In this document: one piece after another, positions 13,471 through 18,088 of the stretch
Layout of the letters: each line of letters begins with the position of its first letter
Position numbering within the stretch: position 1 is the stretch's first letter
Assembly: GCA_016930445.1 (NCBI GenBank)
Contig: JAFGGT010000007.1
Coordinates: 1-36,750 of the forward strand
Origin: Candidatus Methanofastidiosia archaeon
Lineage (GTDB): Archaea > Methanobacteriota_B > Thermococci > Methanofastidiosales > NM3
DNA: 36,750 nt
Direction of reading: 5' to 3'
Notes under the pieces: generated by a model
What the model was told of the DNA's origin: nothing
The model's input: only the letters and a program-made list of their open reading frames with translations
Database searches by the model: none
Position numbers and translations under genes: made by a program

Positions 13471-14478
13471 ATGATGCATATCATGATAGACGGAAGCCTG
13501 GGCGAGGGAGGAGGCCAGATATTAAGGACCTCGCTCGCGCTTTCTGCGATCTCCAATATCGGCATAGATGTCGAGAACATAAGGGTTGGAAGGCCAAACC
13601 CCGGATTGAGGCCGCAACATCTATGTTCCCTGAACGCCATCAGGGAGATCACGTCCGCCGACATGAGCGGTGGCAAGGTCGGATCTTTGCATGTATCTTT
13701 CCTGCCTAGGGGGATAAAGCCTGGAGATTACCTTTTTGACATAGGGACCGCAGGATCCGTTACCTTGCTTGCCCACACATTGCTATTGCCACTTCTTCTA
13801 TGCGAAGAAAGGTCGACCATCACATTGAAGGGAGGAACTGATGTGCCTTGGAGCCCTACTACCTCATACTATGAGAATGTTACGCTTGAGGTCCTTCGAA
13901 AGCTTGGCATAGATGTCCACTTCGAGGCCTCTATGCGTGGGTACTACCCTAAGGGAGGGGGCATTGTCAAGATGGAGATAGAACCCTGGCTGGATAGGAG
14001 CCCTTTGGGCGATGTTAGGGTAAGGAAGCCCCGCAAGCTGTTCATTGATTCCTCATGCTCGGGGCTTAGTGGGGGTGTGGCCGAAAGACAGGCAGCCTCT
14101 GCAGAAAAGGTTCTAGGGGAGTTTGAAACAGAGATGGTCAATGGCATCCCTGGAAGCGGGATCGGAAGCTCCATAACGATATGGGCGCAGGCCGGCGATC
14201 TGCCCATTGGATTCTCGGCTATAGGAAAGCGAGGTTATCTGGCGGAAGATGTTGGAAGGGACGCTGCGCTTGGCATCCTGCGAGTGATCGAGGGCCATGC
14301 TTCTGATGAGCATCTTCCTGACCAGCTCATTCCATTCCTGTTATTTCCTGATGGCAGAAGCTCCATACCAATACCAGCGATGACAGGGCATCTGTCGACA
14401 AATATCCAAGTATCGGAGAAATTCATGAACTTCGAACACACATACGAGAAGGGAAAATTGGAGATAAGAAAAAAATAA
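13471..14478 (+). CDS. rtcA: RNA 3'-terminal phosphate cyclase
   Basis: DGS.GEGGGQILR, GLRPQH, GGTDVPWSP, GYYPKGGG, DQL, GHL.TN. Confidence 0.95.
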   Translation: MMHIMIDGSLGEGGGQILRTSLALSAISNIGIDVENIRVGRPNPGLRPQHLCSLNAIREITSADMSGGKVGSLHVSFLPRGIKPGDYLFDIGTAGSVTLLAHTLLLPLLLCEERSTITLKGGTDVPWSPTTSYYENVTLEVLRKLGIDVHFEASMRGYYPKGGGIVKMEIEPWLDRSPLGDVRVRKPRKLFIDSSCSGLSGGVAERQAASAEKVLGEFETEMVNGIPGSGIGSSITIWAQAGDLPIGFSAIGKRGYLAEDVGRDAALGILRVIEGHASDEHLPDQLIPFLLFPDGRSSIPIPAMTGHLSTNIQVSEKFMNFEHTYEKGKLEIRKK

Positions 14479-14486
14479 AAAGGGAA

Positions 14487-14867
14487 TTAGAAGGTCTCTA
14501 TCCCTTCCTCTTCCAGAAGGCTGCTGGCCCTTTGCGTGTCCGAGACCTTTAGCACGACAAGGGACCTGTCATCCCTATTGACGGCATAGATGGCCTCATC
14601 GATGTTGATGTTCCTCCTCTCGAAGATCTCTATTACGTCCATCAACTTGTTGTCCTCTATGGCAATGGCGGGTGTCACATGTGCTATGAGGTCATGGCGC
14701 TTTAGCTTGTCAACAGCCTTGTGTGGGTCCTCGAGGCATAATCTGACCACACCGAATTCGCCTGCATCGGCTATGGAGAAGCCATAGAGCTTCAAGGACA
14801 TTACCTCCTTTAATATCTGAGACAGTCTTCCAGGTCTATTCTGTATGAAGACCGATATAACATCCAT
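14487..14867 (-). CDS. ACT domain protein (COG4747 type, usually linked to phenylacetate-CoA ligase)
   Basis: ISVFIQNRPGRL, SIAD.GEFGVVRL; last gene of the paaK operon. Confidence 0.88.
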   Translation of the reverse strand: MDVISVFIQNRPGRLSQILKEVMSLKLYGFSIADAGEFGVVRLCLEDPHKAVDKLKRHDLIAHVTPAIAIEDNKLMDVIEIFERRNINIDEAIYAVNRDDRSLVVLKVSDTQRASSLLEEEGIETF

Positions 14868-14870
14868 TCA

Positions 14871-16376
14871 TTACTCCTCCTTGATGCTAATGAAGAAGCC
14901 CGTGTGGGTCCTCTCCAATACCTCATCTGGTGGTGGCTTTGTGAGCAGGCTCACCACTATCATCACTACCACAGATATTATGAAGCTGTAGATTGAAAAG
15001 TGCATTGGTAGTTTCTGAACGTATTGGTGGATGTACCCGAATATCACTGCCGCAATGAATCCTACGATCATCGATGCCATTGCCCCTTCCCTTGTGGCCC
15101 TCCTCCAGTACAATCCTGCCATTATGGGCACGACGAATACGGAGAGAGTGATGCCGATTGTCATCCATATCAGCCACGCCAGGAGGCTTGGCGGGTTTAT
15201 TGCCAGTATGATGGTCACCATTGCGACGATGAACACCATTATGCGGGTGTAGAGGGTCACCTTCTTGTCCTCTGCGTTAGGATTCAAGATGTTCTTGTAT
15301 ATGTCCCAGCTGGCCGTGTTGCCTATTGTCAGCATTATCCTGTCAGTTGTCGACATGACGGCTGCAAGCACTATCACGACAAATATCGGCCATATAAAAT
15401 CAGGGAGCGCGTGTTCCACAGAGGCGACGAACGAATAATCAGCGTATGGTATCGTCATCTCCCCGTTCTCGACCAAGGTCCTTGCGGAGAACCCTATGAT
15501 CTTTATCAGGTACATCACTACGACGTAGATTGAGAATGCGGCCACCGGCGCGTACTTGAAGTACTTCTGCTTCCTTACTGCCAGGATGTTGTTGACGATA
15601 TGGGGGCTTGCACCAAGTCCTACGGCAAGCAGGAAGAAGAAGGACACCAAGTATGCTGGGGTCGCAAATGCGTATCCTGCGTATGCTGAAGGGTACGAGA
15701 GAGTGATCATCTCAGGATCGATCGACGCGAGGGTGTTGTTTATGAATGTGAATCCTCCCGCCGACTTGACGATGAAAGGCGCAAGTATCACGACCCCTAG
15801 TATTATCGCGAATCCTTGGACCATGTTCGTCCAGGCAACGGCATAGAGCCCACCGATCATGACGTATAGGAACACTATGGTCCCAGCAATGAGAAGGGCC
15901 TGCGTGTGCGTTATGTTGAATATCCATACCAGCACTATGCTGATGGCAGTATATTGGCCAACGAGGTATATCACGCCCGTGACTATGACCGAGAGGCCTG
16001 CTATGCCCCTGATGCCCCTTGGGCTGTAGAATCTGTCGGCAAAGTAGTCCTGCACAGTCATATATCCCCTCTTACGGCCGATCTTCGCCATCTTTGCACC
16101 GTAGACGATGATACACACCGCCACCGTCAGTGGCACGAATATCTGCTCCCATATGGTGGGCCATCCCGTCACGTATCCCAACCCCGATGACCCGAGCAGC
16201 GTCATGCCCGACGTGGTCGAGGCCACTATCAGGAAGACGAACACCCAAAATCCGAGGTTCTTCCCCGCAACCATATAATCACTTGAGCTCTTGATCTTTC
16301 TTGATGCCCAGGTACCAATGCCCATAAGTATGACGAAATAGATGAGAACAGTTAGTATCTTGTAGTATTCGTTCAT
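14871..16376 (-). CDS. Sodium:solute symporter (SSS family)
   Basis: About 13 TMs; DYMVAG, SGMTLLG, GGLYAVAWTN, AAVMST, GLYWRRAT; start at ATG 16376 or 16385. Confidence 0.93.
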   Translation of the reverse strand: MNEYYKILTVLIYFVILMGIGTWASRKIKSSSDYMVAGKNLGFWVFVFLIVASTTSGMTLLGSSGLGYVTGWPTIWEQIFVPLTVAVCIIVYGAKMAKIGRKRGYMTVQDYFADRFYSPRGIRGIAGLSVIVTGVIYLVGQYTAISIVLVWIFNITHTQALLIAGTIVFLYVMIGGLYAVAWTNMVQGFAIILGVVILAPFIVKSAGGFTFINNTLASIDPEMITLSYPSAYAGYAFATPAYLVSFFFLLAVGLGASPHIVNNILAVRKQKYFKYAPVAAFSIYVVVMYLIKIIGFSARTLVENGEMTIPYADYSFVASVEHALPDFIWPIFVVIVLAAVMSTTDRIMLTIGNTASWDIYKNILNPNAEDKKVTLYTRIMVFIVAMVTIILAINPPSLLAWLIWMTIGITLSVFVVPIMAGLYWRRATREGAMASMIVGFIAAVIFGYIHQYVQKLPMHFSIYSFIISVVVMIVVSLLTKPPPDEVLERTHTGFFISIKEE

Positions 16377-16377
16377 G

Positions 16378-16491
16378 TCAGTCATCTTCCCCTGGATTGT
16401 ATATCTTAGCCCATGCCAACAGCACTATGACGATCAGGACCGGAATCCCGAAGGCCAATAGGAATGTGCTTTCTTCAAGACCGTATATCAT
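16378..16491 (-). CDS. 37-aa single-TM symporter accessory protein
   Basis: Not in ORF track. MIYGLEESTFLLAFGIPVLIVIVLLAWAKIYNPGEDD*; GGGGAG SD; ATGA overlap with the paaK stop; directly upstream of the SSS gene. Confidence 0.85.
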   Translation of the reverse strand: MIYGLEESTFLLAFGIPVLIVIVLLAWAKIYNPGEDD

Positions 16492-17783
16492 TTTTTTACT
16501 CCCCTTAGATCTATTACTCTTTGAGCCTTGCCGACCGAGCGCGGCATGCTCCCCTCCTCAACAAGCTTCACATCAGCTTTTATGAAGAATGTTGACCTTA
16601 AGCTCTCTTCTAGCTCCCTTTGCACCTTCAATAGATCGCTTAAGCTTCCAGAAAAGAGCTTCTCTGTGACTTCCATATTAATCGTTATCGAGTCCATGAA
16701 GCCTTTCTTTTCCACTACAATCTGATAATGTCCCTTGAATGCAGGATGCATCGATATGACCTCCTCTATCTGGGACGGGAATATGTTCACGCCCCTGATG
16801 ATGAGCATGTCATCGCTCCTGCCAGTTATCCTCTCGATCTTCCTGAAAGGCAGGCCGCACTCGCATTCATCTACGATTATCCTCGAGATGTCCCTTGTCC
16901 TATACCTCAAAAGAGGCATGGCCTCCTTCCATAGAGGGGTGAAGACAAGCTCTCCCTTCTCCCCTTCTGGCAGCACCTCGCCGGTCTTGGGATCTATCAC
17001 CTCAAGAATGAAGTAATCCTCCCAGAAGTGCAGGCCGTCCTTCTGCTCACATTCGCATGCGATGCCTGGTCCGCACATCTCTGAGAGCCCATAGTTATCG
17101 TAGGCGTCTATTCCAAATGACTTCTCGATCTGTTTCCTTATGGCCTCGCTCCATGGTTCGCCTCCAAATACGCCCTGCCTTAGCTTAAGGTCCTTGTCAG
17201 GGTCCATTCCCATCTCCTTGGCGACCTCTGCCAGGTGAAGGGCGTAAGATGGCGTGCTGGTGAACGATGTGGTGTTGAAGTCCTTCATTATCTCCAGCTG
17301 TTTCTTCGTGTTACCAGATCCTGAAGGTATCACCGATACGCCAAGCTTCTCTGCCCCGTAATGAAAACCAAAGCCGCCAGTGAAGAATCCATAGTTGTAA
17401 ATGATCTGCATGATGTCCTTGTTGGTCAATCCAGTTGTCTTCAGTACCCTGGCCATGAGGCCCGACCATACATTTATGTCCTCCTGGGTGTAGTACACGA
17501 CCGTGGATTTCCCTGTGGTCCCTGAAGAAGCATGGAATCTCACTACCTTGTCCAGCGGGCATGCAAGCAGTCCAAAAGGATAATTCTCCCTGAGGGTGTC
17601 CTTCGTGGTATATGGCAGTTTGGCAAGGTCTTCCTTGCACTTTATGTCCTCTGCCTTGAGACCGGCCTCCTTAAGCTGTCGCTTGATCCAAGGCGATGTC
17701 TTCTCACCTACCCTTATCATCTTGCGCAATGCCATTTCTTGCTGAGAAATAATATCATATCTACTAACCTTTGTTGATAACAT
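16488..17783 (-). CDS. paaK: Phenylacetate (aryl-acetate)-CoA ligase
   Basis: HASSGTTGK, YGLSE, RYRTRD, GRSDDM; ATG 17783 preceded by AGGAGG. Confidence 0.93.
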   Translation of the reverse strand: MLSTKVSRYDIISQQEMALRKMIRVGEKTSPWIKRQLKEAGLKAEDIKCKEDLAKLPYTTKDTLRENYPFGLLACPLDKVVRFHASSGTTGKSTVVYYTQEDINVWSGLMARVLKTTGLTNKDIMQIIYNYGFFTGGFGFHYGAEKLGVSVIPSGSGNTKKQLEIMKDFNTTSFTSTPSYALHLAEVAKEMGMDPDKDLKLRQGVFGGEPWSEAIRKQIEKSFGIDAYDNYGLSEMCGPGIACECEQKDGLHFWEDYFILEVIDPKTGEVLPEGEKGELVFTPLWKEAMPLLRYRTRDISRIIVDECECGLPFRKIERITGRSDDMLIIRGVNIFPSQIEEVISMHPAFKGHYQIVVEKKGFMDSITINMEVTEKLFSGSLSDLLKVQRELEESLRSTFFIKADVKLVEEGSMPRSVGKAQRVIDLRGVKK

Positions 17784-17790
17784 TGTAAGT

Positions 17791-17950
17791 CCTCCTAGGT
17801 TCTCTAGGTGCTTAGGTAACAAATGAGCAATCGTCAATAACTATAAGCGTATACCATCATAGAATTAGCAAGGGTGGTAGTACACGCATTACTCTTTATC
17901 TTTCCTTTAACGATTGTCCGGTTCATAAAGTTCACCAGCTATGCCTAGAG
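17791..17950 (-). promoter_or_regulatory. Structured 5' leader of the paaK operon (candidate attenuator)
   Basis: Nested helices 17944-50/17802-08, 17930-36/17815-20, 17923-26/17823-26, 17907-16/17828-37, 17883-87/17847-51, 17875-79/17852-56; alternative SD hairpin CCUAG-AGAAC-CUAGG. Confidence 0.55.
17834..17926 (-). CDS. 30-aa leader peptide (uORF) ending in YAYSY
   Basis: MNRTIVKGKIKSNACTTTLANSMMVYAYSY*; GGTGA SD 5 nt before ATG; TATA (TTTATATA, 17969-17962) upstream. Confidence 0.6.
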   Translation of the reverse strand: MNRTIVKGKIKSNACTTTLANSMMVYAYSY

Positions 17951-18012
17951 CCATGTCCCATTATATAAATGCTTTGTAAAAATGATGGACAATTTGATAT
18001 ATAAGGATTTAT

Positions 18013-18088
18013 TGGTAGCCGGGCGCGGATTCGAACCGCGGTCGCGGGATCCAGAGTCCTGCAGGATTGTCCCCTACCCTACCCGGCT
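18013..18088 (-). tRNA. tRNA-Gln (anticodon CUG), CCA encoded, no intron
   Basis: AGCCGGG/CCCGGCU acceptor stem with A1-U72, loop CU-CUG-GA, GGUUCGAAUCC T-arm; BRE/TATA CCGAAAGGTTTTTATT at 18132-18117. Confidence 0.97.

Follow-up and report, generated by a model that had tools for sequence, protein, structure and literature searches.

A conserved tyrosine-tipped leader ORF upstream of a paaK-family operon in a methanogenic archaeon, a candidate for ribosome-mediated amino-acid sensing

The leader ORF and the operon downstream

The window analyzed in this study is a stretch of 36,750 nucleotides from a Candidatus Methanofastidiosia archaeon (contig JAFGGT010000007.1). Because its genome encodes McrA, the host is a methanogenic archaeon. 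The minus strand of the window carries an operon headed by a paaK-like gene, and the 5' leader of this operon contains a short ORF with its own ribosome-binding site. A tRNA-Gln gene is the same-strand neighbor upstream of the leader and lies outside the leader itself. In the direction of transcription, the features of the locus are the following.

18013..18088, minus strand: tRNA-Gln(CTG) (ARAGORN; Rfam tRNA, 47.2 bits)
17962..17975, minus strand: BRE/TATA-like promoter element AAAGC-A-TTTATATA (sequence; family alignment)
17932..17936, minus strand: Shine-Dalgarno motif GGTGA of the leader ORF, 5 nt before the ATG at 17926
17834..17926, minus strand: leader ORF of 30 codons plus TGA, with the peptide MNRTIVKGKIKSNACTTTLANSMMVYAYSY
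16488..17783, minus strand: PaaK-family aryl-acetate-CoA ligase, 431 aa (Pfam AMP-binding and AMP-binding_C_2)
16378..16491, minus strand: conserved hydrophobic ORF of 37 aa, with no Pfam family
14871..16385, minus strand: sodium:solute symporter family transporter, 504 aa (Pfam SSF, 192 bits)
14487..14867, minus strand: ACT-domain-pair protein, 126 aa (Pfam ACT_8, 39.9 bits; PDB 2F06, E 1.4e-7)
14469..14481, minus strand: T5-A-T7 run directly after the ACT stop (sequence)

The leader ORF ends in TAC GCT TAT AGT TAT TGA (17851-17834). Its Tyr codons occupy 17851-49, 17845-43, and 17839-37, followed by TGA at 17836-34, and these three Tyr are the only aromatic residues of the leader peptide. 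The spacer between the leader stop and the paaK ATG is 50 nt long and contains GGAGG (17795-91), the paaK Shine-Dalgarno motif. The distance from the promoter element to the Shine-Dalgarno motif of the leader ORF is conserved in the alignment of the window's family, and the transcript would be expected to start a few nucleotides 5' of GGTGA. In a crude count, GGTGA was present upstream of 66 of the 881 long ORFs in the genome. The 3' end of the 16S rRNA, searched for in the window's assembly as a check on the anti-Shine-Dalgarno sequence, was not found.

A preliminary description of this DNA, made from the sequence alone, had listed a TATA box, GGTGA with 5 nt to an ATG, a Tyr-tipped ORF of 30 codons, and a spacer of 50 nt, and all of these were confirmed on the minus strand. 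It had also pointed to a TTG (17837-35) that overlaps the leader stop. This TTG is indeed open in the paaK frame, but it was rejected as a paaK start, because the upstream extension is closed or absent in the orthologues and the protein alignments begin at the ATG.

The 431-aa protein matches the solved phenylacetate-CoA ligases PDB 2Y27/4R1L with E values of ~1e-121 to 1e-123 (2Y27: 3.9e-123), and judged by its Pfam domains and the match to 2Y27 it is a member of the PaaK family. Against the TIGR02155 equivalog it scored 496.4 bits, which is below the cut-off of 646.3. The genes behind paaK are tightly packed. The ATG of the 37-aa ORF overlaps the paaK stop (ATGA) and its 3' end overlaps the symporter start; it may encode a small subunit of the symporter. 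The same symporter gene also comes next after paaK at two orthologous loci (L002 and L008). Three bases separate the symporter from the ACT-pair gene, and the T5-A-T7 run behind the latter is likely the oligo-T terminator of the operon. A search for transcripts of the locus yielded no RNA run; four runs, among them a metatranscriptome from the same study, contributed only contigs from DNA, and the organisms themselves are represented by assembled genomes.

Conservation of the leader ORF and its control sets

The comparison set was an order with 34 genomes, in which Tyr-type paaK orthologues with 67-87% identity were present at 21 genome loci. Six of these belong to the window's family, and the other fifteen come from a single genus in a second family. 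The host is tentatively placed in a small order of methanogens, the sister group of a large family that has genomes of ~2 Mb and lacks this gene. Two of the loci (L005 and L018) were excluded as uninformative, the contig ending within 35 nt of the gene. At all 19 informative loci, 5 in the window's family and 14 in the genus of the second family, an ORF of 27-30 codons is found at the same position. The same holds for all three metagenome contigs with full upstream sequence (L117, L118, and L120). L120 is identical to L002, and L117 and L118 provided new peptides, both ending in KVYAYSY. Retention of the ORF and its Tyr cluster in relatives had been named beforehand as the check on the proposed leader, and the result was positive throughout. 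The 14 second-family sequences are closely related to one another, so that the conserved set represents perhaps four to six independent lineages.

A separate Shine-Dalgarno motif precedes every conserved leader ORF, and each ORF ends in a Tyr-rich stretch, either Y-x-Y-x-Y-stop or YCYYY(Y)GY-stop. In the window's family the endings are VYAYSY, KYGYRY, VVYAYSY, and IYGYRY, with Tyr at positions -1, -3, and -5. In the second family the peptide at the 14 loci is MRENLF...VYCYYY(Y)GY or a near variant, with 5-6 Tyr among the last 9 residues. The arrangement GGTGA, 5 nt, and ATG is kept at all five genome loci of the window's family and in L118 and L120 (L117 has GGTGT), and the leader ORF of the second family is preceded by GAGGGA or GGGGA, 4 nt before the ATG. 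The stop stands at an identical position in the genomes and metagenome contigs and varies between TGA, TAG, and TAA. Lengths of 30, 30, 29, 29, and 28 codons and an in-frame TAT indel were observed, all length changes being whole codons.

The rest of the peptide drifts. In the alignment of the 14 sequences, 12, 10, and 9 of 19 columns of the N-terminal part vary at codon positions 1, 2, and 3, respectively, compared with 5 of 30 columns in the tail, and between the two families the N-terminal part differs completely. The locus combines two properties of known leaders: the 5' leader contains a short ORF preceded by a ribosome-binding site of its own, and codons for one amino acid are clustered in an otherwise drifting peptide. 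Judged from these alignments, the pattern fits a reading frame that must be read and in which only the Tyr codons and the end point would matter, and it does not appear to fit a functional peptide or an untranslated RNA. A Thr triplet and a Met pair, which the preliminary description had offered as alternative sensors, were lost in relatives, where TTT is replaced by TNT or TNN and SMM by STK, SVK, or CTK.

As a background for the single sequence, 3,006 stop-defined small intergenic ORFs were collected from the window's genome. A Y-x-Y-x-Y end was found once, in the paaK leader itself, and at least three Tyr among the last five residues were found in seven ORFs. The other Tyr-rich ORFs of this genome lie in AT-rich spacers with unrelated genes downstream. 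Taken alone, the single-sequence evidence is unusual and not compelling; the leader stands above chance because it is conserved in relatives. Two genome-wide scans for further leaders in the window's genome gave only ORFs in AT-rich spacers or ORFs before unrelated genes. The candidates checked precede a PiT-like transporter and an ADP-forming acyl-CoA synthetase-like gene, and a second convincing leader did not emerge.

The external control consisted of 80 unrelated, mostly bacterial paaK loci with ~50% identity, obtained by a PaaK profile search of genome contigs. An ORF with Y-x-Y-x-Y near the gene was present at one of them. This locus, L067 from a Christensenellales MAG, has an upstream ORF of 21 codons, MAQHHKGACAKKIYRYEYCRL-stop, with Y-R-Y-E-Y near its end, 58 nt before the paaK homologue. 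Within the same control set, small Phe-rich ORFs were observed upstream of paaK homologues at four loci from Desulfobacterota MAGs (L037, L040, L063, and L069). The L037 and L040 versions are similar (MRRGFFYFFCFGW… and MRLRFFWRFSFSF…). These Phe-rich ORFs might represent Phe leaders of bacteria or composition artefacts.

Predicted RNA structures and the paralogous loci

Folding of the window's leader with RNAalifold, together with single-sequence folds and inspection of the sequence, gave three elements.

17847..17887, minus strand: predicted stem within the leader ORF, GCGUGUACU (17887-79) paired with GGUAUACGC (17855-47)
17828..17833, minus strand: CGAUUG directly after the leader stop, the complement of CAAUCG in codons 4-6 of the leader ORF (17916-17911)
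17791..17808, minus strand: predicted hairpin CCUAG (17808-04)/CUAGG (17798-94), its 3' arm overlapping the paaK Shine-Dalgarno motif GGAGG

The first of these is a stem of 9 bp that holds the first Tyr codon and is invariant in four sequences of the window's genus. The complementarity between CGAUUG and CAAUCG, as read from the sequences, is kept in all four. In the 5-bp hairpin CCUAG/CUAGG the stem is invariant and the loop variable, again in four of four sequences (RNAalifold). Because the stems of the window's genus are invariant, they are without support from covariation.

In the second family, RNAalifold predicted pairing of the ribosome site of the leader ORF with its own last Tyr codon, the stop, and the next five bases, in an invariant stem (P1, including UAUUGA). 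A predicted fold of L006 likewise pairs the ribosome-site region with the stop region. Further downstream, a predicted hairpin of 41 nt starts 6 nt after the stop and is closed by CUCGU:ACGGG, part of the paaK Shine-Dalgarno motif (ACGGGG), with a T7 run three bases downstream. Three pairs of this hairpin show compensatory changes, in eight cells; the number of cells with changes on both sides exceeded that in all 500 shuffles, a control that has known limits for related sequences. Covariation was seen in this hairpin downstream of the ORF only.

The placement of the Shine-Dalgarno motif of the regulated gene within a hairpin, as in translational attenuation, is predicted for the window's genus and for the second family. 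The combination of a terminator hairpin and U-run with a competing antiterminator, as in transcription attenuators, is missing from the window's leader. A simple scan for bacterial-type terminators gave no sites in the leaders of the window, L008, and L036, and no antiterminator pairing was identified, the T7 hairpin of the second family included. The 50-nt leader spacer has no T-run longer than three, as compared with T5-A-T7 at the end of the operon.

The effect of a halted ribosome was modeled by masked folding, with ribosome footprints at six positions across the 19 leaders. Whether the footprint was masked over the stop or over one of the Tyr codons, the paaK Shine-Dalgarno motif did not become consistently more accessible in the window's family (five leaders) and in the majority of the other 14 leaders, and its mean accessibility showed no consistent increase in any of the 19. 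The hairpin base of the second family disappeared from the masked folds solely when the last Tyr codon or the stop occupied the A site. The idea of the preliminary description that stalling remodels the leader received no support from these predictions for the window, which has no terminator-like site and in whose family the masked folds leave the paaK Shine-Dalgarno motif closed. A clean mechanistic model is disfavored, because accessibility was not consistently raised, the terminator scan was empty, and the spacer of the window has no long T-run.

Two paralogous types of paaK were compared with the Tyr type. In the second family, a paralogous paaK with ~46% identity is preceded at three of three loci (L034-L036, from three genomes) by a leader with the peptide MAMMLVSPKTQVKFSREGTIFVNTWWWN-stop (…NTWWWN-stop). 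This paaK is followed by genes for TrpP, a tryptophan transporter component of the ECF S type (PF17099, 36.5 bits against a cut-off of 27.2), and for ECF A, A', and T; in L036 the leader ORF lies at 192-278, paaK at 336-1583, and TrpP at 1586-2128. The Trp-type and Tyr-type leaders have only their position and the codon run in common. The stop of the Trp leader is immediately followed by a hairpin, and T5 and the Shine-Dalgarno motif come next. The codon run and the amino acid of the operon match here, Trp codons standing before paaK and TrpP. The 5' UTR of a third paralogue (~53% identity) is short at the ten loci examined and contains no ORF of this kind. That Tyr codons precede one operon, Trp codons the operon with TrpP, and neither of them the third paralogue is the strongest argument that the codons would serve as the sensor.

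A TrpE-type chorismate-binding gene was not found in G008 and G022 of the second family (E ≤ 1e-20; genomes 96-97% complete), which hints that this genus depends on Trp uptake or on salvage of indole acids. The window's family has one such gene. Upstream of trpE lie trpD and another gene, and the loci covered end short of the start of that operon; in the aro/tyrA cluster (C104) the operon extends to the contig end.

A different structured element was observed ~190 nt upstream of a paaK-like gene in L023-L027 (e.g. L024:1176-1420, minus strand), with 13 compensatory pairs in five sequences. Its opposite strand matched the H/ACA sRNA family HgcG/Pab40 with 62.7 bits, below the gathering score of 77 (E 8e-17). 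According to this match it is a divergently placed sRNA gene, and it was discarded as a paaK leader.

A leader peptide for tyrosine supply and the alternatives

The physiological setting was considered from the gene content. The α subunit of indolepyruvate:ferredoxin oxidoreductase (IOR), which aryl-acid salvage requires, scored above cut-off in all five genomes tested, and chorismate synthase and prephenate dehydrogenase are also present. Since genes for de novo Tyr synthesis are there, salvage is not obligatory. Methanococcus maripaludis is described as making aromatic amino acids from aryl acids through IOR (Porat et al., as cited in PMC4162585). It is likewise a methanogen with both a de novo and an aryl-acid route; for the operon studied here, homology is the only basis for assigning the ligase step and the transporter. 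With IOR and the de novo genes in a setup that resembles the one in M. maripaludis, it is plausible that the ligase and the uptake system are switched on at low Tyr-tRNA, the substrates being those suggested by the gene context. We know of no regulatory leader for the M. maripaludis route.

From the conservation pattern and the gene context taken together, the 30-codon ORF probably encodes a leader peptide with a regulatory role, monitoring how much charged tRNA-Tyr is available and controlling an aryl-acid salvage operon. The products of the operon would take up an aryl acid from outside, presumably 4-hydroxyphenylacetate, and channel it through IOR into the synthesis of Tyr. When Tyr is scarce, a ribosome would linger on the Tyr codons in the last five to nine positions of the leader, up to the stop. 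Its footprint would then cover the sequence just after the stop, which would otherwise be part of an inhibitory fold of the spacer, and with this fold blocked the operon would be expressed more. We infer that the ORF is translated and that ribosomes stall on it, and likewise the direction of the response, the substrate, and the controlled step.

As for the mechanism, we consider occlusion of a hairpin that either sequesters the Shine-Dalgarno motif or resembles a terminator most likely. For the window's family we would place translational control ahead of transcription termination, although confidence in both is low. In the second family and the Trp leader, the position of the predicted hairpins suggests that a slow ribosome would occlude them directly, because they begin near the stop and, in the modeled second-family leaders, only an A site at the last Tyr codon or the stop removes the hairpin base.

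This leads to the question whether the conserved Tyr codons could be explained without sensing. The ORF might be translated and affect paaK as a constitutive damper or a re-initiation aid, with its Tyr-rich end kept for RNA stems or for a nascent-chain effect on termination. The overlap of Tyr codons with predicted stems, GGUAUACGC in the window's genus and UAUUGA of P1 in the second family, is in line with this explanation, as are the masked folds with their lack of a clear stall-dependent switch. However, the unrelated leaders of the two families both keep Tyr at -1 and -3 with a Tyr codon number of 3 to 6, and the TrpP-linked paralogue has Trp codons at the same place, a match of codon and operon that is hard to explain in this way. 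We therefore regard an ORF without Tyr sensing as unlikely.

Still less probable is a micropeptide with a function of its own, such as one that partners the ligase or the transporter or serves as their substrate. Conservation of the ORF, its Shine-Dalgarno motif, and the C-terminal motif would be expected for such a product, and with the 37-aa ORF the same operon does contain a second conserved micro-ORF. On the other hand, the N-terminal two thirds of the leader peptide vary alike at the three codon positions and are wholly different between the families, the peptide has no hydrophobic segment and no Pfam match, and the Trp-type version shares nothing with it besides position and codon run.

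The open frame could also be incidental if the region acts as an untranslated, structured RNA, e.g. a riboswitch or a leader bound by a protein. The whole leader ORF is predicted to fold into nested stems, and the pairing of ribosome-site and stop regions in the second family and L006 would suit such an element. Yet the ATG, the Shine-Dalgarno spacing, and the stop position are kept despite the use of three different stop codons, and lengths change by multiples of three. No match to an Rfam family was obtained, and covariation is confined to the hairpin downstream of the ORF. Its probability is, if anything, slightly lower than that of the micropeptide, and both are very small. Finally, a chance ORF ending in TAT/TAC codons in an AT-rich promoter-proximal region can be practically discarded: seven background ORFs do have at least three Tyr among their last five residues, and several Tyr-rich ORFs lie in AT-rich spacers before genes of no relevance, but the 19 of 19 informative orthologous loci in two families already contradict it.

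A leader peptide that senses Tyr supply can be compared with the transcription attenuators of bacteria, of which trpL, pheL, and hisL of Escherichia coli are the familiar examples. Leader-peptide attenuation is textbook coupled transcription/translation control and has been treated as a bacterial invention. Like trpL, pheL, and hisL, the present leaders place a short ORF, served by a ribosome site of its own, in the 5' leader of an operon; the otherwise unconstrained peptide includes a codon run for an amino acid that the operon would help to provide, and the Trp version has three Trp codons two codons before the stop. Unlike them, the host is a methanogenic archaeon, the window's leader is without a terminator hairpin and U-run, the regulatory codons reach the last sense codon, and the specificity is for Tyr. 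Furthermore, the target is aryl-acid salvage and uptake, not a de novo pathway.

Translational attenuation is represented by ermC and cat, and direct occlusion by the pyrBI type. As in these systems, a ribosome halted at the end of the second-family or the Trp leader would hinder a footprint-adjacent hairpin that hides the next Shine-Dalgarno motif. In contrast to them, the signal here would be tRNA charging and not an antibiotic or UTP, and the predicted effect is limited to a ribosome on the last codon or the stop and was not reproduced in the window's family.

In mycobacteria, Cys-responsive leaderless short ORFs encoding poly-Cys have been described to attenuate downstream operon genes (bioRxiv 10.1101/834739). 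They share with the present leaders a richness in codons for one amino acid, but according to that preprint they are bacterial, leaderless, and Cys-specific. The full-text literature searched described only bacterial leader-peptide systems and no archaeal attenuator of this kind, although an older report in a subscription journal could be missed in such a search.

The original proposal of Tyr attenuation of aryl-acetate salvage is thus retained in its core, supported by conservation of the leader ORF, the Trp counterpart, and the presence of IOR, and has lost the Thr and Met sensors and the TTG start. On balance, we favor the view that methanogens of this order use true ribosome-mediated amino-acid sensing, in which Tyr and Trp leaders couple tRNA charging to aryl-acid salvage and uptake, and which would be the first case in Archaea. 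These leaders may work by stalled-ribosome occlusion of a stop-adjacent hairpin that hides the Shine-Dalgarno motif and, in one family, precedes an oligo-T terminator.

If true, a conserved pair of Tyr and Trp leaders in methanogens would mean that archaeal ribosomes are used as amino-acid sensors. The leader would also offer a short, concrete sequence for the question what a stalled archaeal ribosome conveys to the archaeal RNA polymerase or to a ribosome site further downstream. Likely substrates are also suggested for the PaaK paralogues, which would comprise a 4-hydroxyphenylacetate type and an indoleacetate type, besides a third type that is unregulated. The finding points to regulated scavenging of aryl acids in uncultured methanogens.
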